The notes under the pieces were generated by a model. The model saw nothing but the letters and a program-made list of their open reading frames with translations, did no database searches and was not told the origin of the DNA. A program made the translations under genes and the position numbers. A stretch of DNA of 52,701 nt from a virus (Duplodnaviria; Caudoviricetes). Location of the stretch: the IMG/VR virus record IMGVR_UViG_3300023210_000044, positions 1 to 52,701 of that record. One strand, written 5' to 3'. Below, in pieces: positions 4,792 to 43,541 of this stretch (position 1 is its first letter; each line of letters begins with the position of its first letter).

Positions 4792-4795
4792 CCAA

Positions 4796-5669: not shown

Positions 5670-5866
5670 AGTCTCTCCAATGCATCAATGCCATCTTGGA
5701 TCTTCTGGCTGTAGCCCTTCAGTTCTTTGATGTGTTTCCTGCGTTCGTCGTCAATGTTCTTGCTGTCGCGGGTCTGGGACGCGAGCACGCCATTGATGAT
5801 ACCCCTGCTGATTAGCAGTGCGTGGCTTACTGTTTCACGGTTGGTCATTTCCATAATTATTTCCAT
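5666..5866 (-). CDS. Hypothetical helical protein
   Basis: Overlaps both neighbouring genes in the operon. Confidence 0.65.
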   Translation of the reverse strand: MEIIMEMTNRETVSHALLISRGIINGVLASQTRDSKNIDDERRKHIKELKGYSQKIQDGIDALERL

Positions 5867-10463: not shown

Positions 10464-10468
10464 ATTAA

Positions 10469-10933: not shown

Positions 10934-11235
10934 TTTATCAATTCCAATCCGAAGATGGCGAGATCATTGAACGTGAATACTCCATGTCCAGCCCGCAAGC
11001 TGCAGGCAAGGGGATCACGGTCAAGGGCAAGAAGTACAAACGCATTCTTACCTCAGGCGCACATGCACCAGAGGTGAATAGCGGCTTCAAGGCTTACGTG
11101 TCGGTGGCCGCGCCCAAGGGTCTGGACAAGATTGATCCGTCTATCCCAATCGACAGAAAAACAGGCCGACCAGTGATTACGAATCACCGGCAAGAAAAAG
11201 AAGTGGCAAGGCTAACTGGCAAAGAATGGCTCTAA
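10930..11235 (+). CDS. Hypothetical protein (FmdB-like N-terminus lacking Cys)
   Basis: Begins MIYQFQSEDGEIIEREYSM; ATGA overlap with the previous gene. Confidence 0.65.
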   Translation: MIYQFQSEDGEIIEREYSMSSPQAAGKGITVKGKKYKRILTSGAHAPEVNSGFKAYVSVAAPKGLDKIDPSIPIDRKTGRPVITNHRQEKEVARLTGKEWL

Positions 11236-11247
11236 CTGGAGACTCAA

Positions 11248-12372
11248 ATGACGATTCCTAACGTAAGGCAAGAAGTGGACGTGGTCCGGCAGATCATCGC
11301 CAAGGTGAAGGCTGCATTGTCCTTGGTCGATGTAGCAGGAAACCCCTGTCAGTCCCACATCGGATCGACAGATGTCCTGCCCATCGCAAAGCTGGGTTAT
11401 ATGCTCGGCGTCAACCTCAATTCGATCGTAAACGAGTACGGCCAGCCCGCGTTGGCTGAAGATTTGATGCGGCCCGGGCAGTACCAATCGATCCATGTCA
11501 ACACCCTGATTGGCTTGGTTGAAAACCAAATCCAGCTCATGTACAACTTGGGCCCGATCGCACCGACTGGTGTCGCCGGTGCTGTGGATTACGGACAGCA
11601 ATCACTGCGAACAGAGGCACACTTTGGTCCACCCCCTGTTCATCCTCAGCCTCAGCCCGCGTTTGTTCCGCCTCCTTCCGTGTTACCGCAGTACGGTAAC
11701 CAAGAGATCGTTCCACCTGTCGCGTACCCGCAGCAGCCTCCCGCACCTGCGACCTTTACGCCACAGCAGCCCGCCCCTGTCTCTGTGCAGCCACAGCAGG
11801 TAGATCCAACGATGGCAGCGATGTTCGGGCAACAGCAAGCAGCACCTCCCGTGCCGCAAGCACAGGCTCCATTGACACCCGGGCAGCAGTTAGGCTATGA
11901 ACCGCTGCCCGGGGCGGTGCCTCAACAGGCTCCTATCCCTATCAACCCAGCGCAAGCCCTTGGCCTTGAGCCTCACCAGCAGGTTGCTCCTCAATTCCAC
12001 GAGCCGACCGCAGCACAAGAAACCGCTGCCGCTGCTGCTGAACTAAAACCTGAACCCCCTCGCCGTCCCGGCCAGAGTCTGCCGAGTGCCGAGGGAAAAG
12101 CTAGTATCCCAGCCATTCCGGCTGGGTTGGTAGGGGGTGACGCTGCGACAGCGTTTGCCAATCAAAGCGAGGGTCATATCCCCACGATGGTGGACAGGAT
12201 CCCCGCTGTAAATAGTTCGTACATGATGGTTGATGGGCCCGCGTTGGATCAGATGATGACCACTCGTGGCATCAGCTTCGATCCCGGCGAAGACAAGAGC
12301 TGGAAGGTCAGGCGTCTCGACGCTTACGATAATGCAGCTCGCGGCCAACTTTCACTTGCACAATCAAGGTAG
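11248..12372 (+). CDS. Pro/Gln-rich hypothetical protein
   Basis: GGAG SD; central low-complexity P/Q/A linker. Confidence 0.8.
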   Translation: MTIPNVRQEVDVVRQIIAKVKAALSLVDVAGNPCQSHIGSTDVLPIAKLGYMLGVNLNSIVNEYGQPALAEDLMRPGQYQSIHVNTLIGLVENQIQLMYNLGPIAPTGVAGAVDYGQQSLRTEAHFGPPPVHPQPQPAFVPPPSVLPQYGNQEIVPPVAYPQQPPAPATFTPQQPAPVSVQPQQVDPTMAAMFGQQQAAPPVPQAQAPLTPGQQLGYEPLPGAVPQQAPIPINPAQALGLEPHQQVAPQFHEPTAAQETAAAAAELKPEPPRRPGQSLPSAEGKASIPAIPAGLVGGDAATAFANQSEGHIPTMVDRIPAVNSSYMMVDGPALDQMMTTRGISFDPGEDKSWKVRRLDAYDNAARGQLSLAQSR

Positions 12373-12396
12373 CGCAGGCTATACTGGAGACAGACC

Positions 12397-13584
12397 ATGT
12401 GGATTTTATTTGATCCAGAAGATGGTTCGCGGCCCCAAGGGGCTGCTGACACCGAGGTTGCAACGGCAGACGCCAATGTATCCACGGGTGAGGTTGACTC
12501 GAAACCTCAGACATTTAAGTACCAGAACCGAGAGTTGAACCACGGTCAGGCCCAAATGGTCGTGCAGTACCTCAAGGGGGATAGCACTAACCCTGCCATC
12601 CCATCTGACCTTAAAGCGTTTGCTGACGAGTCACCCAAGTCCGAGGCCACTGGCGAAACTCCTGCGACACCTCAGATTGGTGAGGCTAAGGCTGCCTCGC
12701 AGACTGCGCAAGCGGAAACTGCGGAACAGACCACGGCAACATCAACACCCAACGATCCCGGCAACGTGCAGGGCCAAACACACGATGCCGAAGAGTTGGC
12801 AAAAGCCACGCAGGCTTTGTTAGCGCAACAGTTCCCTAAAGAACTGGTTGAGCAAATGCCTCCCGACGAGCTGATTCGTCGCGGTGAAAAGGCTGCGAAA
12901 TCGCAGGCTCATTTCAACCGTACGATCGGCGAGAAGAACTCTGCGGTCGAGTCTATGCAGGCTCAGATCGACGAGCTAAAGGCACAGCTTGATACGCGCA
13001 TGAGCGAACCTGATGGCGACGACGACGATGGTTTAGCTTCCATGCTTCCTGACGACGAGCCCACGGGCTACGAACGTCATGAGCAAGCACTCAAGGAACA
13101 GGCCGAATCGCATCAGATAGAGCTTGATGCGGTGCGGGCTACCACTGAGGACCATAGTCGGCGTAGCGACGAAGCGTTCATTGAGATCGCAAGGCGTGAT
13201 CTCTACTCGGAGTATCCTCAATTAAAGGACTCCGAGAAGTTCAAGGAGGTTCATACCAAAGTGTATGAACTCGCGAAGCTTGAGGGCTACCACGATGATG
13301 AATCTGGTGAGCCTGACATTCCTCTGTTAATGATGGATGCCTCTCGCATCGTGCTTGGACAAGAACAAGCAAAGCAACAGCAGTCGGATCTCACGACTCG
13401 CTATCGAGAACAAACCACTGGGCAACCAGACGATATAGATGATATGGCAGATAGTACGATTGAGGGTCAGCCGATGACCAAGCGAGAGAAGATGCTTTAC
13501 GCATACGAACTCCAAACCGTTCATGGAAAAACCCCAGATCAGATCCGCCAAATCACGGATCGTATTCCCGAAGCAGCCGATTAG
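12397..13584 (+). CDS. Probable capsid scaffolding protein
   Basis: Acidic and coiled-coil-like; lies immediately upstream of the capsid gene. Confidence 0.65.
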   Translation: MWILFDPEDGSRPQGAADTEVATADANVSTGEVDSKPQTFKYQNRELNHGQAQMVVQYLKGDSTNPAIPSDLKAFADESPKSEATGETPATPQIGEAKAASQTAQAETAEQTTATSTPNDPGNVQGQTHDAEELAKATQALLAQQFPKELVEQMPPDELIRRGEKAAKSQAHFNRTIGEKNSAVESMQAQIDELKAQLDTRMSEPDGDDDDGLASMLPDDEPTGYERHEQALKEQAESHQIELDAVRATTEDHSRRSDEAFIEIARRDLYSEYPQLKDSEKFKEVHTKVYELAKLEGYHDDESGEPDIPLLMMDASRIVLGQEQAKQQQSDLTTRYREQTTGQPDDIDDMADSTIEGQPMTKREKMLYAYELQTVHGKTPDQIRQITDRIPEAAD

Positions 13585-13613
13585 ATCCGTACCGATAAGT
13601 ACGGAGTATCCAG

Positions 13614-14702
13614 ATGTTAAGCAATCATGCTGACTTCTTGGCGTCAACTCGTGACCAACGCGTCGTTTCAAAGCAAACGCTTTTGAACGAAGCAACTAAG
13701 AACAACTATTTTTTCTTCAGCACAATGATGAAGCGTGCTGAGCAGAAGTTCAAGGGTGGTGACAAGTTGGTTGACCGCATCCAAGGCGATGTGGCTGGCA
13801 CGTTCTCGTTTTACAACCCCAATGATGAGTTTGCACCGACGCAACAAGACACGCTGAAATCAATCAGTGTGGACTGGGCGTTCGCACAATCTCATTATGT
13901 CCTAATCAAAGAAACTGCGTCGTTGAACTCGGGCGATCCTATCGCCTACCTCGACTACGTGATGTCGCTTGAGCAGGGGTGTGTTGTTGATACGATCAAC
14001 GGACTCGAAGAAGCATTGTGGGCTAAGCCCGACAGTCGTACCATGGAATCGTCAAGTGCCGATCCCATTAACCCTCTCTCCCTCCTCTGCTTCAATACTC
14101 GTGACGGTCTGGCTCCAAGCTCGACCAACGGTGGCATCGCCACTGGATCGAGCGATTGGACAACTCTTCAGGGCCTATCACCTTCTAACGAAGCGTGGTA
14201 CCGCAACAAGTTCAAATCGTACACGGCGGCAACGCCTGACAACCCCGATGCTGGTTTGATTTCTGCGATGGACGACATCGTGCTTCAGACCAAGTTCGAG
14301 TTGCCTGATGCGATGAACAAGTACGGCGAAAGCGAAAGCTTGCAGAAGCATTGCATCACGACCAGTCGTGACGGCATCGTCTTCTACAAGGCTCGCTTGC
14401 GTGCCTTGAACGATCGCATGGAACAACTCCGTGACCCGAACATCAACGGTGTTCAGTACAACGGCGTTCCATTGGTCTACGTGTCTGAATTGGATGGACT
14501 TGGTTGGACTGACAATCAGCCCGACTACATGTTCTGGGACTTTAATTACATCGTCCCATTCTTCCATTCTGACACGTACATGGACGAAACGATTTCCACA
14601 GGCGGAAGTCGTCAGCCCAACAGTACAGTCGTGTTCAAATTCACTTGGTACAACATGATCAACAGATCGCGTCGTCGCCAAGGTCGTTTGTTCGCAGCGT
14701 AA
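13614..14702 (+). CDS. Major capsid protein
   Basis: 362 aa after the scaffold; GG..L...I..FSFY..D.....D.L....W pattern of HK97-fold capsids; followed by a terminator. Confidence 0.8.
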   Translation: MLSNHADFLASTRDQRVVSKQTLLNEATKNNYFFFSTMMKRAEQKFKGGDKLVDRIQGDVAGTFSFYNPNDEFAPTQQDTLKSISVDWAFAQSHYVLIKETASLNSGDPIAYLDYVMSLEQGCVVDTINGLEEALWAKPDSRTMESSSADPINPLSLLCFNTRDGLAPSSTNGGIATGSSDWTTLQGLSPSNEAWYRNKFKSYTAATPDNPDAGLISAMDDIVLQTKFELPDAMNKYGESESLQKHCITTSRDGIVFYKARLRALNDRMEQLRDPNINGVQYNGVPLVYVSELDGLGWTDNQPDYMFWDFNYIVPFFHSDTYMDETISTGGSRQPNSTVVFKFTWYNMINRSRRRQGRLFAA

Positions 14703-29459: not shown

Positions 29460-32400
29460 GTGGATCACATGGCAGAACAGACGCTAAATACAGGTTCGCA
29501 GCAGGACTGGCTCCGGTCTAACAATGTGCGTCCGCAGCAGCCTCAGCAGCAGCAGCAAGCTGACCCCAGCGAGGTTGGCATAGACCTGAACTCGGTGACC
29601 AACAAGCGTGATCATGCCCTTGATCGCGATTGGCAAACGCTGGCCGACAGCACGCAGCAGAAGGGTCGCACTGCAAGGTTCAATGATCCTGAACTAAGAG
29701 AAACAATCTTGGGCTTTCGTGGCAAGACAGTCCGTCTCGCCGAGAAAGAACTTAAGCGTCATGACAACATCGTGGATCAGGGATATGAAGCAAGCGTAGA
29801 GCCGGGCGTGTATGTGACGGACGCGGGTAGAAAAGAGTGGGAGTACAAGAACGAAATTAAAAGAGGCTGGTTGCAAGCGGGTATCGGTCTGCTCAAAGAA
29901 CAAGATCCATACCGCCAGCACTTGAAGCTGGACGACGAGCTTGAGGACGACGACCTGCTGGGATTGCCAGAAAAGAAAAAGTCGCAGCTAACACAAAAGA
30001 CGACGGGCAAGTTTGAGGATGTGGAATGGGAAGAGGAGGAAGATGAAGACGAGAAGAACCTGTTTAACCAAAACATGACAGGCCGTGAATATGTAGTCGG
30101 GCACGGCATGCGTAGTGGCCCCACCTCGACGACTCGCCAGACAAGAGCGGCGTTGAAAAAGGTGGCAGAAGAGCATGGCGAAAAAGGAACTGAAGAGTAC
30201 TACAAGCTTGCTGGTGAAATCCCCGGCATGGCCGAGATCAATGGCGTTAAAAAGCTAAAGATGAACGACCAGCCGGTCTTAAGAAAGCCCGAGCCTGAAG
30301 GCTATCAGGTCCAAGCGAAGTACGAACGGAACGACAATGCGAGGCAGGGTTCGACTGCAATAAAAATCCGTGACGCCTATTGGCAGCCCGACGAAGATGC
30401 TGCCAAGCGAAACCGTGCTCACGAAAAGCGATACGCATTGCAGATGGGGCGATGGCTGTACGGCCAGAGCTTTGTCGCGTCAGCAAAGACGGCGATGCTT
30501 CAAGGCGACATTAAAAAAGCCAGAGCATACATGGAAGTTGCGCGGGCAGTGAACCATTTGCAAGATGGGTTCCATGCTGATTCAGGTAGCCCGAGGGTAC
30601 AGAGCGTAGTTAACGCGATCGGTGCGGACGCAATGGAGAAGAAGGCGTGGATGTTGTACCACGGCACCGTGGACGACGAAGGCAAGATGACCGCCGATGG
30701 GTACAAGCAGAAGACTGAAGAGTTTGATCGCGAGAACCGTGACCGCGTAGGCCAGATGACGGACGGCGAAGACAGGATGCATTCGATTAAGCGTGCGATT
30801 TACTCGTTCGCTCAGGTGTTCCCTGAGGGATATGCCGCTGCATTGGAATCAGCTGATCAGATATTGCAGCATTACTTTAACACTGGCAATAATTGGTCGG
30901 CGGAAGAGTCCGCGATGTACAACGCGCTTGGTGGGTCTTGGCTATCCAAGCAGCAGGGTAAGTTGGACCAGAGCGCAAACGCTGGCGACTTCTACGTAGA
31001 TCAAGTCCCAGCTATGGTCGGCGCACAGCTGGCGTTCTTGGCGTCAGGTGGTATCGCTGGGAAGCTTAGCAAGGGACTGAAGCTCGGCTTGCAACATAGC
31101 AAACTCCTTCAATCAGTAGCGATGGGCACGGCTGGTTCCGGCATGTCGTACAAGTCCATCAGGGACGAATGCATTGCCATGGGTGGCACGCAACAAGAGG
31201 CTGAGGGCATGGTCATCTGGGGCGTGCTGTCTGGTATGACTGAGGCTGTTCCGCTGGCCGTCAAGTACAAGGGCATGGGCAATCTGACGGAAGCGATCGC
31301 AGGCATGGGCAAGGGGTTCAAACGAACTCTGCTTAGCCGCATCAAAAGTGCGGGTACAGTTGCTGCGATAGAGATCCCGAAGATCTTTTCAGAGACCGTT
31401 GAAGAATGGGGCCAAGAAGGTATCCAGCAGTGGATCCACAATGTGGGTGCATCGACAGTCTACGATGTCATGCGTCAGCTTGACGAAGGTGTGAAGGAAT
31501 CAGCAGCTATGGGTGCGTTGTTCGGTGGTGTGTTCCAAGGTCTCCACTCCGGTGCCCATGTCGGTGTCACCGCGTTCATGAACCAGAGGATCAAGTCGCC
31601 AGACGACACACAAATAACTAACGAGATCCTTGCTTACATGCACGGTGGGCAAGAGGCTGTTGATGCGATGCGGAAAGCGGGAATGTCTGATGGTGATATT
31701 TACTCGACGCCCCCCGGGGAGGCCGCCAAGGCCGCGTCCGATTCCGCAAGAGCCGCAAGAAAACAACTCAGGGCATTAGAGGATGATGTTGCAGCTAAGG
31801 ATCAGGCTAAACAGGACGCGATGAGCGAACTGCAAGATGGTGATGCAAACGAATCTACACCTGAGTCAAAGGCGAGGTATCAAAACTTTAAAGCAGCGGA
31901 AGCTTCTGCGAACGAGGCTCGTGCCAAGCACAATGAGGCCAAAGCTGCGCCGCAGAAGGCTGTCGATGAAGCCGAGGCCAAGCTTAAAGAAACAAAGGAA
32001 GCAGCAGAAAAAGATCCCCGCCATGCAGCGGTGGTTCAGGCGTTCGACACTGCATCCAACGAGGTGGATGCCCTTGAGAAAGAGATCGCTACCGCAGAGA
32101 AGACGAGGAACTTTAACAAGGGTGGCGACACCAAGGCGTTGGATAAAAAGCTAAAGGATCTTTACGGCAAGCGAGATGATGCCCAGTCCCGTAAGGATGC
32201 TGCGGAGAAGATAAGCAAAGAGTTCCTTGAGCATGCAACCAAGCCCGCTAAGGCTGAGGTGGCAAAAGCTAATGACGCATTGGCTCGTGCTGAAGCACTT
32301 ACCAGAGGGAAGAGTATTGACGACCTCGTCAAGCCCAAGAGCAAGCAGCCAGCAGGATTGAAACGCAACAAAGACCTGAACGATGCTGGCAAGGAGTACG

Positions 32401-35400
32401 GCGGTTCATCCACAACTGTAACACCAACGCGGACAGGTACTGGTGGGCAGACAACGCAAGCTGCCAAGGCCGACAAGGCTAAGGATAAGGCGATCAATGA
32501 TGCTGCTGCTGCCAAGCAGACGGTAGAGGAAGCTGCTGCGGAAACAGAGAGGCTACGGCTAGCTGCCCATGCCGCAGTGGACGCGTTAGAGCAAGAAGAT
32601 GTGGATGCGGACGAAGACGCATACACCGCTGCATATGACGCCGCACAAGAGGCAGTGGACGCACAAAATGCTGCCCGTGACCTAGAGGCGGTCATGAGGA
32701 ATAACGCCCAAACCAAGGGGCGTGTCGAGGGCAGCCAACAGAAGGGTGACAAGCGAACCAAGGCTCGCAAGCTCAGCGACATCGTAGCTGATGTTGACCC
32801 GCTGTCGTACCTGCGAAAGGATAGCGAGAAGGCCAGCGACCAAGAAGAAGATTACGACGTGGACCTTGGTGAGACCGAGACTGAAGCTCCCATCACCATA
32901 GACACCTCGATTAAAGTGGCATTGGCAAAGTCCCAACTAGCTGCTGCAGAAAAAGCGTTCGCTGATGCGGTGGGCGAGAATGATATCAACGCGGCTGAAA
33001 AAGCACTCAACGATGCTGAGTCCGCACTTGCTGCGGCTGAGGCGGCTCACGATAAGGCGAATCCTACTGAGTATGTAGACACAGATACAGGGGAAACGAT
33101 CGAGATCAAATCAAAAGCAAGCAATGGTTGGCTCATTGTTCGTAATGGAAAAACTGAGTTGGTGAAAGACCTCAACTACATGACGCGAGGTGAGTACGAA
33201 GCGAACAAGAAGCAAGAAGCTGATGAAGCAGCGATGGAAGAAGCGAAGCAAAAGAAAGAGGACGAGCTGGCAGAGAATGACATTGAGGTGTTGTGGTACG
33301 ACGACGAGAAGGGTGTCATGTTTGTTAAGCACCCTCCTACCAAGAAGAACCCAGATGGCAAGATTGAAGAGATGCCCAATGTCTTTGCCGACAAGCCACG
33401 CACGCAGTCTAAGTTTACTCGCGGCGAACTGAAGCGAGCGAAGAAAGCATACGACCAACTCAAAGAAGAAAACGCAACGCGACAAACTGAAGAAGAGTTC
33501 AACGCTGCCAAGGCCAAGTCGGGTGCGACTGCTGCACGTCAGGCTGAGCTGGAACGATTCAAGAAGTTCATGGAGAAGGCGATACTCGCCTTCCTGCCCA
33601 AGGGATCGAAGTACAACGCAGACGATCGGGTCGTTACCTTGCCCAACGGTAAGACGTTCGATGTCGAGTACTCGCTGGAAGAGGATCTCATCAACGGCAT
33701 CTCTGGAATTATCTCAACCCCCGGCAGTGACCTCAGCTCGCTTATCGCTTCGATCTATGGCCAGAACAGCAGGGCTGATTTAGATCTGGCGAAACTTCCT
33801 CTTACCAGTGAGGAGTTTAGCAAGCTGCCTGACGAGGAGCAGCGATCCAAACTGATGCGACTGTTCGGTCCTAATGGTGCGGGCGGTAGGACTGGTGGTC
33901 ACTGGGACGGAGCGAAAGTAACCACGATCACTACAGCGGATGGGGCGAAGACTGTCCTTACTGGCCGGTTGTATACCGCACTGCCTGTAGGTAGCAGCAC
34001 GAACATCGCCGCCTTCGACAAAACCTTCGCCGTCCTCCGCGAAGAGATCGGTCACGCTGCAATACAACTGATGCCCATGAGTCAAAAAGACAGAAAGCGA
34101 ATGGGTAAGATCTACGGTAAGAAGGGCGTGTTTGACAAGGAGGCTGAAGAGGCATTCCTTGAGGACGCCGTCCGTTACCACGCAAGAGGCGTGCATGAAG
34201 GCGGCTTCCTCAAGAAAACATTCGACAAGATGTTCAGCATGGTTGAGACTTTGCTAAACATCGGTAGGCCGTCAGCACTGCGAGGCCGTGCAGCAACACG
34301 TATCGCGATGCGCAATCTATGGGGACCGTCACACTCTGAGCCTGCCAGCCAGCCTACCGTTGCCTCTTCCCTTGCTAATCAAGAGCAGGATCTGATTAAC
34401 CAAACGAAGCACAACATCAGGCTCAGCAAGGCAGAGCTGGACACGCTCAAGTTTGATGAAGATGACATGCTTGTGGGTGACGCGTCTCCCAAGGTCAAGA
34501 AAATACTTGATGAAGAGCGAAAAGATTTCATCGAACGTAACAAAAGCAAGGGACTGCAGGCACCTAACGACAGGCACTTGCTTGGTGCGGGCGGATTGTT
34601 TGGTGGTGCAGCTGGAATCAAAAGAAACTATGGGTCACCCACATCAATCGTTGCGGGTGACTTCCAGAAGGCACCGGGCGATCGCGCTAGGTTGAACCCT
34701 CTACTCAAAAAGCCCAGCTCGTTTACAGATGAGCAATGGGAAGCGAAGATCCAAGAAGTAGCGGACGAGCTGGACGCTAGGTACAACGTCGATCTTTCCT
34801 TAATGACATGGATGGTCGGGAACGTGCATACCCCGTTCTACGAGACAGCCCAAAAACTTGACAGTTCGGACGAGCCCGGTGGCAGGAACCGCATGAAGGA
34901 ACGTCTGGCGGATCTGATGCCCATGGTGTTCGATCCTGACTACTACATGAAGAGTGACCCGATGCCCGGCACGCCAGAGACAGGCATGTACAGGGAAGGG
35001 GGTGGCCTCTCTGGAACCTTAGACCTGATGGAAGTCATGACTCCTGATGTGAGGGACAAGTGGGTCACAAAACCTTGGTTTAATCCAAGCGGATCGGCCA
35101 AGATGTATGAGCCCGGTAGCGTTGAGCTTGAACCATCAAATGATTTTGATAGGTTCTCCAACAGGCTGTTGAAAGAATCTATCTTCACTATATTCCAGCA
35201 AGGTTTGCTGGCGGGGTCTGGACCATTTGAGAATGATTATCCGGGATTTCTGAAATCAATTAAGTTTGATTTGTCCAAATTTGTTTGGACAAATATAAAC
35301 AAGTTCCTTGATAGCCAAGGGACAGGTGCCTTTGGTAATGACTCTTACTTCCGCGTCATTGCCGAGATGAATGCCCACATGCCAGACCTTCTTAGGAAGG

Positions 35401-38400
35401 TCACTGGCGAAGATGATGCCAGCCGCGCTAAGTTGCTGCTGCAATTGACCAGAGGAAAGGGTGGTGCCCCCGCCCCTCTCGATTACTCCAATCCGTTGAA
35501 ATATATAGCGAATGCGGCGACGCCCATGCACCATCTGGGCAAGATTACAGGGAACGACAAGAAGAGCATAGGGCTAACGAGGTGGGAATCAGATAAGCAG
35601 AAGGAGATTGACAACCAGAAAGCACATGACAAGTCAGAGGCGATATTGCAAGCTGCGGCGAAGGAGAGGGTTGATGCTTGGATCCTCAAGGAGTCCGAGC
35701 TGATGACGCCACAGATGGAGAAGGATTTACTGCAGCGTAAGCCTGCCGAGGACGAGCAGGCTAGGGGCTGGTTCATGCCATGGTCAGTAAAGGTAGGGGA
35801 GTGGGTAAAAAGTGCGCCGACCGATGGGCCTGATGGCGACCTCGCTGTATCAAAATGGGAGAGGGTGACTGAGACCATCAGAACAGGGTGGGATGAAGAT
35901 GCTCAAGAGTCAATATGGAATATCCGCACGAACGTAACCGACCAGCTCTTAAAAGAGACAGGTACAGACTATTCGTACGAAGGGATACCGTCAGAGCTGA
36001 ATGAAATGCTAAGTATGCCTGTCACGGTGTACTCGCCAGCGTCCGAAGAATATCTTGCCACCGCAGCGAAAGAGCTGGAGAGAAAATACAGGAAGCGGGC
36101 AGAGCAGATGGGCATCCCGTTCTCCTCTTTCATGCACGGCTTGATGTACAAGTTCGTATCGAACGTAGACACCACGAGCAGTGAGTTCCTCGATGGTTTC
36201 TACGGGCGGAACAATCCGCTGACTGACGAGAACGGTGAAGCCACCGTGATGTACCGAGGCGAAGAGGAAAAGGGCGTCGCCCTCCCTCGTGTGGACTTTA
36301 GGAATGCTCCTCAAGGTATGATTTTCTTGACGAACCGCGTCACGAAAGCGGCGACCTACACGCGTGAGTACTACGACAGAGGTTTGGATCCTAAAGATGC
36401 GATAGGTCCGCAGGCTGAAGTCCATATCTATCCCGAAGGCCACCGCTATGCTGGACAGCGGGAGAAGCATTCGATGGAGTGGTTCGCGAATGATCCCGGC
36501 AAACGAATACTTCAGTTTGACGAAGATACGAAGGAGATGCTTGATCCTAATTTTGAGTTCAATCGAGGCCAGATCCTGCCCATGTATATCGGGTGGAAAA
36601 GACCATTGATAATAGAGGCTGCTGGTGCTGACTACAGTCAAGTCCCCACCCCTGAGATATTCTTCCACCAGAGGATCACCGAGAAAGAATACAAGGAGCT
36701 TGAAAAAGCTGCTAAGTTTAACCACGGCTACGATGCGAAACCTATGGGCGGGTCAGAGTATCTCATGTCCCGAGAGAAACCCGGTCATGAATCCATGGGC
36801 ACTGACGACGTGCTCAGGATGCTGGTCATGTACAACAATCTTCAGACATCAGAGGATGCAAAGTACGACGGCGTTCTTATCAACAACCTAGTAGACGAGA
36901 TGCATGCTGGCTGGTCTCAGCCAGCTCAGGTTGCAATTGTCCCTGTAGAGTATGCCAAGAACTTGAAGTCCGCTTCAGGCAACACGACCTTCGACAAAGA
37001 GACGACCCACCCTGATCACACCCTGTACAACATCCGCCTACCTGAAGCTGTCAGTGAACTTGAATACGTCAGTGAACTTGGCGGGTCCACGGGTGCGATA
37101 CTCATGGAAGATGACGAGGGCAAGAAGTACGTCGTCAAGCGAGGCAATAGCTACGAGCATGTTGAAGACGAGTACGCCGCCGAGGTCATGTACCGCGAAG
37201 CCGGTATCCAAGTGCCGCCATCTACCCTCGTGTATGACGACGAGGGCCCAGCGAAGATCTCGCTTTACCTTGGTAACACGAGGGAGATTGGTCGCCTCTA
37301 CGGTGACGAACTTGCGAAGGCAAGGAAGGCTGTTCAAAGCAACATGGCAGCTGACGCACTGTTTGCCAACTGGGACGTTGTAGGTATGGGCGGTGACAAC
37401 ATCCTTGTCGATACAGAAGGCACGCCATGGCGTGTGGATGTCGGCGGATCGCTACGCTACCGTGCCCAAGGTGGGCCTAAGGGTGAGATGTTCGGCGATG
37501 TTCCCGGGGAGCTTAGATCCCTACGTGAGATGAACGAATGGTTTAGCGACATGACTGACGCTGATGTCATCAAGTCACTGGACAAACTGATGGCCCGCCG
37601 CGAAGTGATCCTCGACTCGATCGAAGACCCCGACGTCCGCGAAGTCATGGCCCAACGATTCAAGAATGCCGGTGATGTGGTTGGCAAGAAATACAACATC
37701 GACTTAAGCCACAAGAAGGAAGCCTTTGGTGGTGTCCTCATGAACAGTGACGGCAAGGTCTTGCTCCGCGAACCCTCCAACCACTTCGGTGGCTACGCTT
37801 GGACCTTCCCCAAGGGCCGTCGCGATCCCGGTGAGACGCCAGAGCAGGCAGCACTCCGCGAAGTCAAAGAAGAGACAGGCTACGACGCCAAGATTGTCGG
37901 CACGATCGAGAAGGGCTTTGAAGGCGATACCACGGTGACGAAGTTCTTCAAGATGGAAGTCGTCGGCGAGCAGGGTGAGACAGACTGGGAGACCAACGCG
38001 ACAGGTTGGTTCACGATTGATGAAGCCAAGGCCAAGATAGGCGAGTCACCTAACGAGGCTGGTCGCGACCGTGACCATGACATCTTGAACCATGCGTACG
38101 GCAAGGGCGATGCCAAGTACAACGTCGATCTCGGTATTCGTGTGCCAGCCAGCTTGCGAGGTCAAGAGACGATGGCGACCAACCCATATGTAAGCGTGCC
38201 TGTTGTTGCTATCCCCAAGGATCGGCCTGATCAATTTGTATCCTACCTGCGGGCTGCTCAATCACACTCGGCGAACACGCCAAAGGGCTTCGAGGGTATA
38301 TCCGCGTTGAGATTCATGGCCCTTAAGGAGGGCGGCTGGGTGGTATGGGATTATGAGAATGGAGACCATGATGATGTTGCTGGCTCCAGAGAACATAAGG

Positions 38401-41400
38401 GTACATTTGAAACCAAAGGACCACACCGAGGATATATCCAGTTCCGGGACGGTGAGTGGGTAGAGGAAATCTACCCTTACATCATCAAGGCCAACAAGAA
38501 GATGCTGCCCAAGGAAGCGGTCAGATACCTAAAAACCCTGCCGGTTGCGGAGTATGACGATCGCTACGACTACGAACGCTACAACGTCGATCTCGCTGGC
38601 CCCCGCACTAAGGAGTTCAAGCAGTGGTTTGGTGACAGCAAGATCGTTGATGCTGACGGCAACCCGTTGATAATGTATCACGGCAGCTTATCGTTTAACC
38701 CAGCGAAGTACGACAAAGAGGCGGCGAATCGCGGGGATAAGCCGTTTACCATCTTTGGGAAGGAAGGGGGGCAAGCAGGGTGGTCCGAGGAAGGTCACTA
38801 CTTTGCCAACACCCCCGAAGAATCACTGAATTATACATTCGGCGACCCTTCGTTGGTTAAATCGTTCTACCTCTCAGCAAAGAATCCGTATGTATTTGAC
38901 TGGTCGAGGACAGAGTTTGATGAAGACGCTTGGTGGCCGACCGAAAAAGAATTAAAGAAAATGGGGCATGATGCGGTCATTGTGTATGAAGGGGAAGATG
39001 GAGGATATCATGGCCCTCAAAATGTTTGGGGCAGTAACTTAAAAGAGGTCATCGTCTTTGATGCTAACCAGATTAAAGAGATTGAGAACACCAAGCCGAC
39101 GAGTAGCCCTGACTATCGCCACAACGTCGATCTCGGTATCCGTGTGCCAGCCAGTTTGCGAAGCCAAGAGACGATGGCGACCAACCCATATGTAAGCGTG
39201 CCTGTTGTTACTATCCCCAAGGATCGCCCCGATCAATTTGTATCCTACTTGAAAGCTGCTCAGTCTCACTCGAAGGGCACGCCAAAGGGTTTTCAGGGTA
39301 TCACTGCATTGAGGTTCATGGAGCTTAAGGAAAAAGGCGGCTGGTTAGTATGGGATTATGAGAATGGAGACCATTACGACGTTAAAACCTCCACGGAATA
39401 CAAAGGTAAACTGCTGCCCTACCATGGCCATGTCGAGTTCCGGGGTGGCAAAGCGGTAAACCAAAATATCCTTGGCATGGTCACGCGTGCCAACAAGGCC
39501 ATGTTGCCTAAAGAAGCAGCCAGCTATCTCAAGTCCCTGCCCGCTACGGACTTTATGAACCCCAGCTACAACATTGACCTTGACTCTTGGGTAGGCAGTG
39601 ACGCAGCTAACAAGGCGGCTAATGAATACTGGAGCGAGCGGGTACTCACAAAAGAGTTTAAGGACTGGTTCAAAGGTAGCCAGATCGTTGATGAGAATGG
39701 CCAGCCGCTGATTGTTTATCACGGCTCGCCGGGCAAGGACGGATTCACTGAGTTCGGCCAGTACACCATGGACTACGTGATGGAGAATGGTCCGCCATCA
39801 CGCTATGCCGACACCGCATTCTTCTTCACTCCCGACCGGGAGTATGGGGAGCACTACGGTCCTGTTAAAGCGTTCCATCTTTCAATTAAAAATCCGAAGA
39901 GGGTTACCGCTCAAGAGTACGAGAAGGGGTATCTCGATCTCACGTCAACATTCACAGAAGGTGGTATGGACTGGGGTAAGAAGGCGTACTTCGACAGCCT
40001 CATCGCAGAGGGCTACGACGGTATCATTTCAACCGAGGGCCCGATAGTAGGTGACGAGGGTATGTGGAGCAACGTCGATGAGATCGTTGCCTTCAATCCC
40101 AGCGACATCAAAGAGATTGAGAACGTCAGGCCGACCGACAGTAAAGACTACCGCTACAACACTGACATCAGCCTCGCCAGATCGTATGGCGAGAAGGAAG
40201 CAATCAAAGTCAACGGCAAGATGATTGACTTCTGGCCTGACGCTGGCCGTCACCTCGGTGGCCTTGTCGGTATGATCCGCCAAGAGGCGAGGCTACCGAC
40301 AGATGAAGGCGAGAAGAGTCACACTGGATTGAGAGCACTCGCTAAAGGCGACGGCACCGACGCTGTCTTCTGGCGATCAGAGGACGCGGTCCATAGCGAC
40401 GTCGGCAGCAAGCTCGGTGGCCAGTACGCTCAAGAAAATACCAAGCTCCAGTTCGTGTTCAACAAGAACATGCCCATGGCTGATGATGTCGAGGGCTGGG
40501 CACCCAGCCTGAAGGCTGCGAAAAAAGCATTCAGTAGGATTCTCGGCCATGCCGGGTGGCAGATCGATAGCATCGACAACGCAGGCAGATTACTGGTCAG
40601 CCAGCTACCGAAGAAAGGTAGGCCGGTTGAAACCGCTCGCGACCGTCGCGACGCGAAGGGCGTGCCGACTAACATTGCTGATCCTGATTTAAATAACCCA
40701 TGGCAACAGCCCAACGATACCAACTTGGTTGAAGGTTCTCGCATCAAGTTCCCCGGCACTGAGTCAGCACCTCTTGATGGCGTCGATAGACTTACAAGTG
40801 GCGCCATCAACATCAACTACATTGACTCTGAAGGCGATCGTGCGATCCGCCACTACAAGTCCGAGAGTGAAATGTCCGGCGACCTCCAAGTTCTCCCTGC
40901 TGCCAACTCCCGCTACAACGTCCGGCTCAAGGGGCCAACCGCATCAGCGATCGCCGAGTCCTTGGCTCGTCAGGCCATGACCGAGAAGCCCGGCGAGAAG
41001 ACGATCGGTGCTCCACGCATTGATGCTCACGGCAACGTCATCAACCTCGCCAACCCCGGCATGAGTCCCGAGGGTCGCGCTGTCGCCAGTGCTGGCCAAG
41101 AGATCATGAAGCACAACAAGGGGCTGCGACGTGACACTGACGTAGAGAAGGAAGCAGCAGCCTACCTTGAGAGCAAGACACACGAAGGAGCTGTGGATGA
41201 GATCTTCAACAGGGGCGGCATGGGCATGACAGATGCCCAGACCCTTGTCGCTCGCAGCCTGATCACCGCCCAAGCTGACAAGGCGTTCCAGACGGGCAGT
41301 ACGGCGGACTTTGCCAAGGCTGTTGAGATGGCGATGTCATACGAAGAGGCAGGTATGGACATGGCCCGTGCCCTTCGTGCCCGCCGTGACTTCGTGCAAG

Positions 41401-43541
41401 ATCCAGCCCAACGCATCCGCGACTACGTGTACGAATCAATCACGATGCCTGACCCAAGGACACGGGAGATCGTAGAGTTCTGGAGCGGGAAGATGAGGAA
41501 GGCAACCACTGACGCGCAACGAGAGAAAGCCTTCAACAAACGCAAGGCTGTCCTTGACAAGTACGCCAAGCGATTGCACAAGATCCGTGACGCCCTGCGT
41601 GCGGCTGGACTCGACCCCAGTACGATGACGCCTGAAGATTGGGCTGACCTCAAGAAAGCATCGAGAGCTGTCCGCATTGTCCAGACAGCCAAGCACGGCA
41701 TGGCCGACAAGATGTTTGAGTACTGGATCAACTCGATCCTGTCTGCACCTATCACCCACATCCGCAATGTTGTGGGTAACACCGTGTTCGGCTTCTGGGA
41801 GATGACCGCCCAACGCATGACCGAGGTTGCAGTCAACGCAGTGTTGCCCGGCAACAAGGCCGACGCCACCACGCTGAGTGAGCTAAAGTACCTGTACGCT
41901 GGCTTCCTGCAAGGCACGAGTGAAGGGTTCGCTAACGCATTCAAAGCGTATGACACCGAGGTGCCAACCAGCCTCGAAGACTTCTCGTCTAAGATTGAGA
42001 AGGCTGACATGACCAAGGCGATCAAGGGTGCTCATGGTCGTGCGATCAGGATACCCACACGACTACTGATGGCTGAAGACGAGTTCTTCAAGTCGATCAT
42101 CTTCCGCATGGAAGTAGGTGCTCACGCTTACTCCATCGCCAAGAGTGAAGGCAAGCAAGGCAAGGCTCTGTCCGACCGCATTCAAAACCTAATGATCGAT
42201 CCTACATCGAAGGCTCAGGTCGCAGCTCGTGACGAGGCTAAGCGATTGACGTGGCAAGCTGACACGGACAATGCCATCTACGACCTGATCCGGCAGCTGC
42301 GTGTACGCGTTCCCGGTGCTCGCTACGTCATCCCATTCCTAACGACACCTTGGAACATCTTTAAAGTCGGCACGAAGAAGAGTCCGTTCGGATCGCTCGC
42401 ATTGATGTACAAGATGATCCGCACGCAGACAAGTGACACCTACGAATACAACCGCCGCGAAGCAGTGCGTGACACTGCCGAGCAAATCTGGGCATGGGCA
42501 GCACTGGCTGCCTTCTTGAGATGGGCGGCACCTGACGAGGACGATGAGGAAGGCGCAGACCCACGCCCAACTATCACTGGCACCACTCCGATCGACCCGT
42601 CAGAACGTGCCGCCGCTTATCGTTCCGCACCGCCAATGTCTATCCGTATCAACGGTGAGTACCACTCGTATAAATTTATCGAGCCTTACTCCACCATGTT
42701 CGGATGGATGGCTGACAGTGTCTACAAGTTAGGCCGAGCCAAGAATGGTGCAGAGACCACGCAGATCTTCAAAGATCTGACTGGTAGTGTTCGCGGCATG
42801 TTGCGAGACAAGACGTTCTTGTCTGGCATGAGTGACATAGCTCGGATTATCGAGAACCCAACTACCGGCATCCCCAACTGGGTGAGTAGCTTTGCGTCAT
42901 CATGGGTGCCCAACATCGTACGCAACCCCATGCATGCAACAGACAACTACATCCGCAACTACGAGCAGAGTGTTGCCAACTTCGGCATGCCATTCTTCGT
43001 AGAGTTTGCAAAGAACACGGCATGGAAAGCAATGCCATCCGAAGCATTCATGGGTGCTCTTGGTATGGCACCGCCTCCACCACGCGTGAACATCTGGGGA
43101 CAGCCAGTCATGAAACACATGGGTGGCAATGCGGCAAGCGACTTCCTTCACCGTGTGTTTTCACCTGCTCAAAAACAAAACACCCAAGCCAATCAAGGCT
43201 TGCACATTGACATGTTTGCACACGAGTGGAACAAGCGATTCCCTTACGACCAACTCAAGACGCCGATCCCCGATCGCCGCATCACTATCCGCAAGAAGAA
43301 TTACGAGATCGACGACGCGTTGATCAATGAGTACCTGATCGTGCGGGGGCAGATGGCGTTCCGCATGCTCAAAGATGTGAAGTTCGATTACGATAAGCCT
43401 CGCAAGTGGCAACGCAAGCTAATCAGTGACTCACTCACCCGAGCAACCAACATGGCGAACAGGTCATTGATCCTAGGCAAGCTGCAGGAACACGTTGCCA
43501 GCGGCAAAATTAGATTACTTTCAAAAGAAGCTGGCTACTAG
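29460..43541 (+). CDS. Giant polyvalent protein (4693 aa): zincin-like, three ART-like, HipA/PI3K-like kinase, Nudix and LPD38-like C-terminal regions
   Basis: Uninterrupted ORF. Nudix box GRRDPGETPEQAALREVKEETG; kinase YVVK..E..NWD..DNIL..VDVGG; ART-PolyVal-like WFxxSxIVDxxGxPLIxYHGS; REEIGH. Confidence 0.9.
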   Translation: MDHMAEQTLNTGSQQDWLRSNNVRPQQPQQQQQADPSEVGIDLNSVTNKRDHALDRDWQTLADSTQQKGRTARFNDPELRETILGFRGKTVRLAEKELKRHDNIVDQGYEASVEPGVYVTDAGRKEWEYKNEIKRGWLQAGIGLLKEQDPYRQHLKLDDELEDDDLLGLPEKKKSQLTQKTTGKFEDVEWEEEEDEDEKNLFNQNMTGREYVVGHGMRSGPTSTTRQTRAALKKVAEEHGEKGTEEYYKLAGEIPGMAEINGVKKLKMNDQPVLRKPEPEGYQVQAKYERNDNARQGSTAIKIRDAYWQPDEDAAKRNRAHEKRYALQMGRWLYGQSFVASAKTAMLQGDIKKARAYMEVARAVNHLQDGFHADSGSPRVQSVVNAIGADAMEKKAWMLYHGTVDDEGKMTADGYKQKTEEFDRENRDRVGQMTDGEDRMHSIKRAIYSFAQVFPEGYAAALESADQILQHYFNTGNNWSAEESAMYNALGGSWLSKQQGKLDQSANAGDFYVDQVPAMVGAQLAFLASGGIAGKLSKGLKLGLQHSKLLQSVAMGTAGSGMSYKSIRDECIAMGGTQQEAEGMVIWGVLSGMTEAVPLAVKYKGMGNLTEAIAGMGKGFKRTLLSRIKSAGTVAAIEIPKIFSETVEEWGQEGIQQWIHNVGASTVYDVMRQLDEGVKESAAMGALFGGVFQGLHSGAHVGVTAFMNQRIKSPDDTQITNEILAYMHGGQEAVDAMRKAGMSDGDIYSTPPGEAAKAASDSARAARKQLRALEDDVAAKDQAKQDAMSELQDGDANESTPESKARYQNFKAAEASANEARAKHNEAKAAPQKAVDEAEAKLKETKEAAEKDPRHAAVVQAFDTASNEVDALEKEIATAEKTRNFNKGGDTKALDKKLKDLYGKRDDAQSRKDAAEKISKEFLEHATKPAKAEVAKANDALARAEALTRGKSIDDLVKPKSKQPAGLKRNKDLNDAGKEYGGSSTTVTPTRTGTGGQTTQAAKADKAKDKAINDAAAAKQTVEEAAAETERLRLAAHAAVDALEQEDVDADEDAYTAAYDAAQEAVDAQNAARDLEAVMRNNAQTKGRVEGSQQKGDKRTKARKLSDIVADVDPLSYLRKDSEKASDQEEDYDVDLGETETEAPITIDTSIKVALAKSQLAAAEKAFADAVGENDINAAEKALNDAESALAAAEAAHDKANPTEYVDTDTGETIEIKSKASNGWLIVRNGKTELVKDLNYMTRGEYEANKKQEADEAAMEEAKQKKEDELAENDIEVLWYDDEKGVMFVKHPPTKKNPDGKIEEMPNVFADKPRTQSKFTRGELKRAKKAYDQLKEENATRQTEEEFNAAKAKSGATAARQAELERFKKFMEKAILAFLPKGSKYNADDRVVTLPNGKTFDVEYSLEEDLINGISGIISTPGSDLSSLIASIYGQNSRADLDLAKLPLTSEEFSKLPDEEQRSKLMRLFGPNGAGGRTGGHWDGAKVTTITTADGAKTVLTGRLYTALPVGSSTNIAAFDKTFAVLREEIGHAAIQLMPMSQKDRKRMGKIYGKKGVFDKEAEEAFLEDAVRYHARGVHEGGFLKKTFDKMFSMVETLLNIGRPSALRGRAATRIAMRNLWGPSHSEPASQPTVASSLANQEQDLINQTKHNIRLSKAELDTLKFDEDDMLVGDASPKVKKILDEERKDFIERNKSKGLQAPNDRHLLGAGGLFGGAAGIKRNYGSPTSIVAGDFQKAPGDRARLNPLLKKPSSFTDEQWEAKIQEVADELDARYNVDLSLMTWMVGNVHTPFYETAQKLDSSDEPGGRNRMKERLADLMPMVFDPDYYMKSDPMPGTPETGMYREGGGLSGTLDLMEVMTPDVRDKWVTKPWFNPSGSAKMYEPGSVELEPSNDFDRFSNRLLKESIFTIFQQGLLAGSGPFENDYPGFLKSIKFDLSKFVWTNINKFLDSQGTGAFGNDSYFRVIAEMNAHMPDLLRKVTGEDDASRAKLLLQLTRGKGGAPAPLDYSNPLKYIANAATPMHHLGKITGNDKKSIGLTRWESDKQKEIDNQKAHDKSEAILQAAAKERVDAWILKESELMTPQMEKDLLQRKPAEDEQARGWFMPWSVKVGEWVKSAPTDGPDGDLAVSKWERVTETIRTGWDEDAQESIWNIRTNVTDQLLKETGTDYSYEGIPSELNEMLSMPVTVYSPASEEYLATAAKELERKYRKRAEQMGIPFSSFMHGLMYKFVSNVDTTSSEFLDGFYGRNNPLTDENGEATVMYRGEEEKGVALPRVDFRNAPQGMIFLTNRVTKAATYTREYYDRGLDPKDAIGPQAEVHIYPEGHRYAGQREKHSMEWFANDPGKRILQFDEDTKEMLDPNFEFNRGQILPMYIGWKRPLIIEAAGADYSQVPTPEIFFHQRITEKEYKELEKAAKFNHGYDAKPMGGSEYLMSREKPGHESMGTDDVLRMLVMYNNLQTSEDAKYDGVLINNLVDEMHAGWSQPAQVAIVPVEYAKNLKSASGNTTFDKETTHPDHTLYNIRLPEAVSELEYVSELGGSTGAILMEDDEGKKYVVKRGNSYEHVEDEYAAEVMYREAGIQVPPSTLVYDDEGPAKISLYLGNTREIGRLYGDELAKARKAVQSNMAADALFANWDVVGMGGDNILVDTEGTPWRVDVGGSLRYRAQGGPKGEMFGDVPGELRSLREMNEWFSDMTDADVIKSLDKLMARREVILDSIEDPDVREVMAQRFKNAGDVVGKKYNIDLSHKKEAFGGVLMNSDGKVLLREPSNHFGGYAWTFPKGRRDPGETPEQAALREVKEETGYDAKIVGTIEKGFEGDTTVTKFFKMEVVGEQGETDWETNATGWFTIDEAKAKIGESPNEAGRDRDHDILNHAYGKGDAKYNVDLGIRVPASLRGQETMATNPYVSVPVVAIPKDRPDQFVSYLRAAQSHSANTPKGFEGISALRFMALKEGGWVVWDYENGDHDDVAGSREHKGTFETKGPHRGYIQFRDGEWVEEIYPYIIKANKKMLPKEAVRYLKTLPVAEYDDRYDYERYNVDLAGPRTKEFKQWFGDSKIVDADGNPLIMYHGSLSFNPAKYDKEAANRGDKPFTIFGKEGGQAGWSEEGHYFANTPEESLNYTFGDPSLVKSFYLSAKNPYVFDWSRTEFDEDAWWPTEKELKKMGHDAVIVYEGEDGGYHGPQNVWGSNLKEVIVFDANQIKEIENTKPTSSPDYRHNVDLGIRVPASLRSQETMATNPYVSVPVVTIPKDRPDQFVSYLKAAQSHSKGTPKGFQGITALRFMELKEKGGWLVWDYENGDHYDVKTSTEYKGKLLPYHGHVEFRGGKAVNQNILGMVTRANKAMLPKEAASYLKSLPATDFMNPSYNIDLDSWVGSDAANKAANEYWSERVLTKEFKDWFKGSQIVDENGQPLIVYHGSPGKDGFTEFGQYTMDYVMENGPPSRYADTAFFFTPDREYGEHYGPVKAFHLSIKNPKRVTAQEYEKGYLDLTSTFTEGGMDWGKKAYFDSLIAEGYDGIISTEGPIVGDEGMWSNVDEIVAFNPSDIKEIENVRPTDSKDYRYNTDISLARSYGEKEAIKVNGKMIDFWPDAGRHLGGLVGMIRQEARLPTDEGEKSHTGLRALAKGDGTDAVFWRSEDAVHSDVGSKLGGQYAQENTKLQFVFNKNMPMADDVEGWAPSLKAAKKAFSRILGHAGWQIDSIDNAGRLLVSQLPKKGRPVETARDRRDAKGVPTNIADPDLNNPWQQPNDTNLVEGSRIKFPGTESAPLDGVDRLTSGAININYIDSEGDRAIRHYKSESEMSGDLQVLPAANSRYNVRLKGPTASAIAESLARQAMTEKPGEKTIGAPRIDAHGNVINLANPGMSPEGRAVASAGQEIMKHNKGLRRDTDVEKEAAAYLESKTHEGAVDEIFNRGGMGMTDAQTLVARSLITAQADKAFQTGSTADFAKAVEMAMSYEEAGMDMARALRARRDFVQDPAQRIRDYVYESITMPDPRTREIVEFWSGKMRKATTDAQREKAFNKRKAVLDKYAKRLHKIRDALRAAGLDPSTMTPEDWADLKKASRAVRIVQTAKHGMADKMFEYWINSILSAPITHIRNVVGNTVFGFWEMTAQRMTEVAVNAVLPGNKADATTLSELKYLYAGFLQGTSEGFANAFKAYDTEVPTSLEDFSSKIEKADMTKAIKGAHGRAIRIPTRLLMAEDEFFKSIIFRMEVGAHAYSIAKSEGKQGKALSDRIQNLMIDPTSKAQVAARDEAKRLTWQADTDNAIYDLIRQLRVRVPGARYVIPFLTTPWNIFKVGTKKSPFGSLALMYKMIRTQTSDTYEYNRREAVRDTAEQIWAWAALAAFLRWAAPDEDDEEGADPRPTITGTTPIDPSERAAAYRSAPPMSIRINGEYHSYKFIEPYSTMFGWMADSVYKLGRAKNGAETTQIFKDLTGSVRGMLRDKTFLSGMSDIARIIENPTTGIPNWVSSFASSWVPNIVRNPMHATDNYIRNYEQSVANFGMPFFVEFAKNTAWKAMPSEAFMGALGMAPPPPRVNIWGQPVMKHMGGNAASDFLHRVFSPAQKQNTQANQGLHIDMFAHEWNKRFPYDQLKTPIPDRRITIRKKNYEIDDALINEYLIVRGQMAFRMLKDVKFDYDKPRKWQRKLISDSLTRATNMANRSLILGKLQEHVASGKIRLLSKEAGY

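Follow-up and report, generated by a model that had tools for sequence, protein, structure and literature searches.

A repeated joint peptide between the effector modules of a giant phage polyvalent protein

Why would a single phage protein carry the same short peptide ten times, each copy at the border between two modules? We examined this question in IMGVR_UViG_3300023210_000044, an IMG/VR virus record (Duplodnaviria; Caudoviricetes) analysed over its full 52,701 nucleotides (nt; hereafter the window). This 52.7-kb viral contig, with an estimated completeness of 73%, contains a giant open reading frame (ORF; 29460..43541, + strand) that encodes 4693 amino acids (aa) from a GTG start and is of the virion-type polyvalent class; the database copy, 4690 aa long, begins at ATG 29469, three codons downstream. 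Pfam identifies two stretches of the ADP-ribosyltransferase (ART) family ART-PolyVal (expect value, E, 2.5e-27) and a NUDIX domain (E 4.1e-19), giving the giant the two or more unrelated effector domains on one phage or plasmid polypeptide by which polyvalent proteins are recognised; one further ART and one HipA_C match fall below threshold. We propose that the repeated peptide is very probably a point at which modules are swapped.

Joints and modules along the giant

A preliminary description of the locus, made from the sequence alone, had listed ten in-frame copies of (Y/H)N(V/I/T)(D/R)(L/I), and all ten are present within 29460..43541, each exactly where it had been placed. Composition predicts 0.022 such sites, and shuffling the protein 2000 times produced 0.0245 on average and never more than 1. 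A six-frame scan of all open frames of at least 80 aa found no strict match elsewhere in the window, and a looser pattern returned a single one, FNLRM at 5031. Four sites had also been said to share their DNA; the 13-mer ACAACGTCGATCT indeed recurs at 34783, 38119, 38581 and 39121, against 0.08 expected. A basic residue precedes the motif aromatic at eight of the ten sites (K instead of R at three), and an acidic D occupies the fourth motif position at seven. De novo motif counting with a reduced alphabet did not recover the window motif, an approach that proved too blunt.

The same description had placed the motif at domain borders, which is borne out by Pfam and hidden Markov model (HMM) envelopes, by the ends of high-scoring segment pairs (HSPs), by the ends of stand-alone Nudix ORFs and by the start of an internal repeat. 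Reading along the + strand, on which all of these features lie, joint 1 (HNIRL, aa 1651, 34410..34424) divides the N-terminal structural part from a 119-aa module, and joint 2 (YNVDL, aa 1775, 34782..34796) divides the latter from a 743-aa module. Within this stretch lies a cryptic third ART-like domain (36171..36986), matched by a purpose-built ART HMM at aa 2238-2482 (E 4.4e-7) and by Pfam ART-PolyVal at a sub-threshold E of 8e-4; its ART-type tail NLKSASGNTTFD runs into joint 3 (YNIRL, aa 2523, 37026..37040), where the kinase-like module begins (37041..37691). For the region 37026-37691, earlier labelled a kinase, the module border stands, and the identity comes down to a sub-threshold HipA_C match (E 9.6e-4, 19.3 bits with a cut-off of 30.5) and tblastn likeness to phage proteins. 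HSPs of this module to other giants begin at aa 2528, one residue past YNIRL.

Joint 4 (YNIDL, aa 2745, 37692..37706) separates the kinase-like module from the NUDIX hydrolase domain (37716..38036), whose Pfam envelope, aa 2753-2859, fits between the motifs at 2745 and 2887 and which alone among the modules has sequence matches in the PDB. Nudix HSPs span 2751/2752 to 2882/2886, starting 2-3 residues past YNIDL and ending 1-5 residues before the YNVDL of joint 5 (aa 2887, 38118..38132), the Nudix/A border; three stand-alone Nudix ORFs stop at the position of this YNVDL. Across the comparisons with other giants, HSP ends lie 0-10 aa from motif sites.

Domain A (38133..38579) is followed by joint 6 (YNVDL, aa 3041, 38580..38594) and ART-PolyVal module 1 (ART1; 38595..39119), which was found by Pfam and is placed by the purpose-built HMM at aa 3043-3206, between the motifs at 3041 and 3221. 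Joint 7 (HNVDL, aa 3221, 39120..39134) then leads into domain A' (39135..39566), and joint 8 (YNIDL, aa 3370, 39567..39581) into ART-PolyVal module 2 (ART2; 39582..40154), with its best Pfam stretch at aa 3411-3558 and the purpose-built HMM at 3390-3551, between motifs 3370 and 3566. Domains A and A' are 68% identical, and the corresponding DNA repeat (211 nt, 87%) starts with the motif's second base. Scans of viral and metagenome contigs found no relatives of domain A, which likewise has no Pfam match and no atlas lead (best score 0.87); alternating as they do with the two ARTs, A and A' may be partners or regulators of them. Joint 9 (YNTDI, aa 3566, 40155..40169) connects ART2 to a 248-aa module (40170..40913) that has no Pfam match and a marginal likeness to A (BLASTP E 0.052). 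Joint 10 (YNVRL, aa 3819, 40914..40928) closes the effector region against the C-terminal structural module.

We modelled ART1 with its flanks and Nudix with its flanks using AlphaFold2 (AF2) on shallow alignments of 23 and 5 rows, obtaining mean predicted local distance difference test (pLDDT) values of 70.4 and 65.5. The four motif copies in the two models, including that of joint 4, lie wholly or largely at pLDDT <50, outside the ART and Nudix cores. The ART1 model matches PARP catalytic domains. The conserved start of ART1 (FKQWFGDSK...) includes a 70-nt stretch, 38616-38685, with 80-82% DNA identity to Pseudomonas phage vB_PaeM_USP_25 and Dolichospermum phage Dfl-JY45.

Module exchange and kinship of the joint

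Other giants retrieved by searching with the effector region of the window lack YNVDL and carry instead one to six copies of (N/D)xDIR(F/Y)S, in the context QIKSAxGNxGxFDxxNPDIR(F/Y)S, a few residues beyond the end of the Pfam ART-PolyVal model. The preliminary description had proposed comparing homologous giants for gain or loss of modules at the motif. We carried out this comparison on 18 non-redundant viral frames from 25 loci, after dropping five near-duplicates, one truncated frame and one stand-alone 191-aa ART, and defined homology blocks by BLASTP (at least 65% identity over at least 100 aa), which yielded 18 internal boundaries. In 10 of the 18 the motif lay within 6 aa of the boundary in both partners; 2000 null trials gave a mean of 0.04 and at most 2. 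The boundaries are partly non-independent, and by eye the 18 correspond to about ten events, of which about eight fall at the joint. The strict motif was found at the boundary in either partner in 9 of 18 (null mean 0.64). In one typical pair, ...VKFSIRAP and ...VKKSIRAP, the sequences are unrelated upstream and 97% identical downstream; in another case ...KDFKYSI is followed at once by unrelated sequence.

Exchange at the joint also appears in the window's own lineage. Window DNA is present in seawater metagenome runs, and we compared the lineage over those parts of the stretch that contigs assembled from runs X4-X7 cover. In X6, a run from a study other than the possible sources of this DNA, both listed pieces that fit the window perfectly and then run on into unlike sequence break close to a motif. 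One matches 38577-38731 without a difference after 96 unlike letters, with the break 3 nt upstream of motif 6; the other matches 40909-40956 without a difference after 194 unlike letters, with the break 5 nt upstream of motif 10. Given these distances, the common part opens with R-YNVDL in one and R-YNVRL in the other, pointing to joints 6 and 10 as swap points in a wild relative. The last 30 unlike letters of either contig are absent from the window, and a third X6 contig spans motif 8 with the window's arrangement. Loose-ended pieces at 38613-38652 and 39687-39721 were rejected as relatives: they are mismatched and come from the conserved part of other ART genes that codes for FKxWFGDSK. Run X4 contains a second strain, in which differences at 37916-37928 (noted span 37877-37928) fall at every third base in a synonymous-like pattern, and a more divergent contig over 40475-40748 with 20 differences in 274 nt (noted span 40505-40605).

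Is the peptide or its DNA conserved at the joint? The answer differs between relatives and window. Among motif sites within one genome, relatives use the same codon in 33 of 77 pairs against 24.7 expected (13 of the 18 viral frames), and their S, L and R codons vary freely, so that selection there is on the peptide. At the window motifs, Tyr is encoded by TAC in 8/8, Asn by AAC in 10/10 and Val by GTC in 5/5 cases, compared with gene-wide shares of 0.73, 0.69 and 0.35. Pairs of the same residue share a codon in 107 of 150 cases (67.3 expected; none of 5000 simulations as high), and leaving out the recent A/A' duplicate still gives 86 of 122 against 55.9 (p 0.0006). This uniformity fits copying of the joint DNA during exchange, and may owe something to a bias towards major codons at critical residues. 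The earlier suggestion that the motif acts as a microhomology for in-frame exchange is partly supported: blocks swap at it in relatives and in a wild relative, and its DNA is over-uniform.

The family-wide joint has the consensus ...GNxGxFDxxNPDIR(Y/F)S(L/I)R... and flanks ART-PolyVal cassettes in many polyvalent giants. In MAFFT alignments, PDYRHNVDL and KDYRYNTDI of the window share columns with PDIRYSLRA, PDIRYQIRN and PDIRYNLRN of viral relatives, joint 7 lining up with the DIRYSLR of the relatives, and on the N-terminal side of the ART, ERYNVDLAGPRTKEF is placed over DIRYSLRAPDTKEF and AKFSIRAPNTKEF. Since these columns coincide, the aromatic of the window motif corresponds to the Y/F of DIR(Y/F)S, with N in place of S. 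The position agrees as well: sites 3221, 3566, 3041 and 3370 lie 5-7 aa downstream of where the Pfam model ends, about 7 aa upstream of the FKxWFGxS that opens the next ART, or both. The sequence D-I-R-(Y/F)-S itself is not found; the window has (D-Y)-R-(Y/H)-N-(V/I)-(D/R)-L, with D-x-R at two sites only. Judged by alignment, then, the window motif is a local variant of the widespread ART-cassette joint, aligned with it and not identical to it.

We surveyed 149 representatives drawn from 4323 HMMER matches to ART-PolyVal. At least one D[IVLMY][RK][YFHW][SNAQT] occurs in 63 of them and at least three in 27; none of the 149 carries more than one site of the window's type. Different lineages have uniform tail variants of their own, namely SIL(M/A)S, DITRR, NISES, ILSQ and KITES. 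When sites matching the 5-mer [RK][YF][SQN][ILV][RASDNK] were classified by ART HMM in 178 ART-bearing proteins, 65 lay within 45 aa of ART envelopes (4.2 expected) and 6 inside them (12.5 expected). As enrichment is limited to the neighbourhood of ARTs, the family-wide joint belongs to the flanks of ART cassettes. The window is unusual in that five of its ten sites (1651, 1775, 2745, 2887 and 3819) join non-ART modules. Close relatives with the window's variant were not found by protein word search, among the 149 representatives, or in viral, metagenome and genome contigs, the viral scans having been queried with the C-terminal module, ART1 and domain A.

The best metagenome match (L112, 40%) has a frame at 9719-14389 encoding a 1557-aa MuF-type head protein with ART-PolyVal, Nudix and a kinase-like module related to the window's; the module order is reversed, Nudix before kinase, and the window motif is absent. 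Nor do Yersinia fHe-Yen8-01 and Morganella Mecenats66, in which relatives of kinase, Nudix and ART are neighbouring genes, have such a motif. A second type of joint, WDE.KHPRGEHG(R/K)(W/F), N.NHD.KGRFASG or NPSQPRDARGRWGSGGG, follows ART tails or precedes ARTs in P0035, P0039, P0059, P0064 and L112 (aa 70-90); it is repeated at many junctions per protein and is absent from the window.

Cleavage and rival explanations

Does the joint also mark a site of cleavage? Both VENN in CdiA and the cleavage sites of viral polyproteins offer an analogy for processing at the motif, which we consider plausible but somewhat less likely than not. Two patterns hint in this direction: each giant has one uniform tail variant, as in viral polyproteins, and HExxH occurs in 36 of 47 motif-rich compared with 69 of 134 motif-poor proteins, an association that is weak after stratification by length. 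Weak support also comes from the relative P0158, whose zincin-like region, folded with its own joint peptide, scored 0.43 against 0.00 for the best control (partner pLDDT at least 41; runs agreeing in at least 48% of contacts), on a scale calibrated with 78 solved complexes, 51 of which reached the mark, and 108 mismatched pairs, 2 of which did so, and where passing scores of 0.60 or lower were more often wrong than right. Two mechanisms were rejected. Intein-like Asn cyclisation at (H/Y)N conflicts with the S that relatives carry instead of N, and a caspase- or metacaspase-like enzyme with D or R at P1 would need one S1 pocket to accept both, which it cannot.

For the window itself, the preliminary description had pointed to a REEIGH motif (34038-34055, + strand) as a zincin-like peptidase, an assignment that found no support; the first His of HExxH is missing. 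A language model gave LPD23 and LPD1, two domains of unknown function, as look-alikes of the region (0.93, a lead only). A phmmer search of it against the collected giants gave E values of 0.017-0.8, and its alignment of REEIGH on HEAIGH (E 0.16) is not significant.

Our best explanation unites swapping and processing and is, as a whole, somewhat less likely than not. In it, the motif is a standardised joint of a virion-packaged polyvalent protein, its short peptide lying in the flexible linkers that connect the modules. It derives from the joint of ART-PolyVal cassettes, and in this lineage, where its DNA word hardly varies, it occupies every effector border. Once the chain has been ejected into the cell, an endopeptidase would cleave it at the basic-aromatic-(N/S) core or next to that core, setting the kinase-like, Nudix, A and ART modules free as individual effectors. 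This peptidase, unrecognisable in the giant, may come from the host or from a gene in the quarter of the genome that the contig lacks, and the common DNA word would let new modules enter in frame. A bolder version seems to us rather unlikely: a true phage polyprotein, in which the 4690-aa chain would be injected with the DNA and cut at its ten joints into about nine effectors by an unrecognised peptidase or host enzyme, with the joints as universal in-frame sockets for cassette trade among marine phages and DIR(Y/F)S(L/I)R as a general cut-and-swap signal.

A number of results weigh against the united explanation. On the side of exchange, six more of the 18 boundaries lie 10-21 aa from the motif by BLAST ends and two (L088/L091) lie away from it, and the evidence from the window's lineage consists of two short X6 contigs at depths of 2.1 and 3.3, making exchange there a pointer and not a proof. 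Away from ARTs the 5-mer occurs 25 times in the 178 proteins, with 25.2 expected; given this lack of enrichment, the motif may be an accessory of ARTs and not a general junction. On the side of cleavage, the 4693-aa giant has no HExxH anywhere, the REEIGH piece has no Pfam match even at E 10 and did not hit a crude HMM built from HExxGH regions, and a PHROGs or Pfam scan found no protease among the 20 other ORFs of the window, a contig that lacks about a quarter of the genome. In proteins longer than 3000 aa the association between HExxH and the motif vanishes, and the alternation of D and R at motif position 4 would be awkward if this were the P1 residue of a protease. The (R/K)(Y/F)S core is kept at 167 of 693 internal ART ends compared with 2 of 25 C-terminal ones, a trend only (p 0.09), and C-terminal ARTs mostly retain the GNxGxFDxx..I tail though nothing releasable follows. 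Finally, the N4 virion RNA polymerase (vRNAP), a related type of giant, is packaged unprocessed (PMC5512222, PMC13492108); in a cryo-EM paper of 2026 it is termed an unprocessed polyprotein (PMC13492108).

Several of these observations would be expected if the motif were a swap point and nothing else, its DNA word kept as the flank of a mobile ART cassette and as a short homology through which modules could be added or replaced in frame, and its peptide an uncut and harmless spacer. Breakpoints at the motif in relatives and in X6, the four-fold 13-mer with its excess codon identity in the window, the motif on both flanks of ART cassettes and the lack of a peptidase in the giant all suit this account, as does the absence of the strict motif upstream of all 34 N-terminal ARTs, which indicates that the ART does not need it on that side. 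We nevertheless judge it rather unlikely: relatives keep the amino acids while their S, L and R codons differ, the peptide is kept across very distant giants in a way that 13-18 nt of homology within one lineage cannot explain, and 15 nt is short for efficient homologous exchange. The peptide might instead be recognised without being cut, for docking at the capsid interior or portal during packaging, as a chaperone or ratchet site during entry of the unfolded chain, or as a regulatory tail or auto-modification site of ARTs that has spread to other joints. Its exposure as a linear motif in the AF2 models, the basic residue beside an aromatic and an aliphatic one, its tight linkage to ART tails across the family and the persistence of the GNxGxFD..I tail in C-terminal and stand-alone ARTs would accord with such a role. 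Half of the window sites, however, are not beside an ART, D at seven of ten sites suits a chaperone site poorly, K for R at three of ten argues against an Arg-ADP-ribosylation site, and no partner is known; we regard recognition of this kind as improbable.

That the repeats are no feature at all, and arose as a by-product of tandem duplication or of composition, is scarcely credible. The flanked modules do include two duplicate pairs, A/A' and ART1/ART2, but the sites join non-homologous modules, and the number expected by chance, the absence of the motif from other frames, its alignment with the family-wide joint and its coincidence with block boundaries all contradict such an origin.

Processing of polyvalent proteins has been proposed since 2017 without a named site, and an alignable joint offers a concrete place to seek cuts. 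It also provides a handle for predicting module borders in thousands of unannotated giants. A joint of this kind would explain how phages and conjugative elements reshuffle anti-host enzymes in frame, and would represent a natural design rule for linking and swapping protein modules.

Known systems and genomic setting

By its sequence the giant belongs to the phage polyvalent proteins as understood by Iyer, Burroughs, Anand, de Souza and Aravind (2017), a string of effector modules between two structural parts. Those authors suggest that embedded zincin peptidases split such proteins into units, and they propose recombinational variability as well (PMC5512222). Like the proteins described there and the family ART-PolyVal (PF18760), the giant combines ART, NUDIX and kinase effectors in one virion-type polypeptide, and its ART tails and joint align with theirs; unlike them it has no HExxH, and its joint is the shifted variant (Y/H)N(V/I)(D/R)L, present at non-ART borders too. 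The main text of that paper names no inter-domain motif and uses 'junction' for Holliday junctions. Within searchable full-text literature, to which supplements and subscription journals do not belong, we found no description of the joint.

The giant is thus a new member of the polyvalent proteins, and its joint is a VENN-like demarcation joint. In CdiA, toxin entry depends on VENN being processed exactly (PMC9424206), and the motif has been tied to recombination of toxin cassettes (PMC3150448). The joint resembles the VENN of CdiA and polymorphic toxins as a short conserved peptide at the border of exchangeable modules, and homology likewise breaks at it, in the relatives at 10 of 18 boundaries and in the window's lineage in two X6 contigs. 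CdiA has one motif per protein, before the C-terminal toxin, whereas the giant has ten in series; sequence, modules and delivery route (phage ejection) also differ. An element-specific short consensus at every junction is shared with viral polyproteins and with phage head-protein sites (LxE for T4 gp21, and the prohead protease of giant phages). Unlike those cleavage systems, no protease gene was found in the window, the capsid module shows no prohead protease, and the cleavage sites are putative. The Alt protein of T4 is reportedly a packaged effector that is trimmed. Trimmed packaged proteins are reportedly also exemplified by phage SPN3US (PMC10052503).

In its great size, its predicted internal or ejection role, its conserved C-terminal module and its mixture of enzymatic domains, the giant further resembles gp47 of phi24B (2811 aa) and gp69 of the Bcep22-like phage JC1 (bioRxiv 10.64898/2026.04.10.717836; PMC9144972). 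These podovirus giants, with a C-terminal module of LPD38 type, carry lytic transglycosylase, DarB-like or MuF-C domains, and the text available for them reports no repeated joint. Pfam did not detect LPD38 in the window giant.

The gene order of the contig is terminase, portal, beta-helix fibre and SU10-type adaptor, then the giant ORF, then helicase and primase. Its location where the structural gene block ends, a PHROGs annotation as internal virion protein and a region like that of N4 vRNAP are indirect signs that the giant may be a virion protein carried in with the invading DNA. This N-terminal region (30357..32294, + strand; aa 300-945) resembles the N-terminal region of N4-type virion RNA polymerases, matching profile positions 36-652 of 3406 in phrog_2206 (E 3.6e-12), and no polymerase domain was found within it. 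The motif is absent from aa 1-1650. A long stretch rich in Ala, Glu, Lys and Asp at 31600-33400 (aa ~740-1330) in the N-terminal part is probably coiled coil or low complexity.

At the other end, the C-terminal module (40929..43538, + strand; phrog_6651, E 1.1e-13) is homologous to stand-alone internal virion proteins of about 950 aa. Matches to the last 875 aa of the giant were confirmed for 206 of 207 viral-contig stretches, and in the 80 loci fetched most of the frames that cover these matches are ORFs of their own, about 950 aa long. The stand-alone relatives begin MAI(E/Q)Q... and have no motif. In loci L006-L077, the ORF that precedes the stand-alone homologue (~945-987 aa) contains one DMRF(S/N), about 150 aa from its C-terminus. 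The left end of the window (1-6000) stands apart with a G+C content of 0.45-0.51, compared with about 0.53-0.55 elsewhere, and an absence of large ORFs on the + strand.

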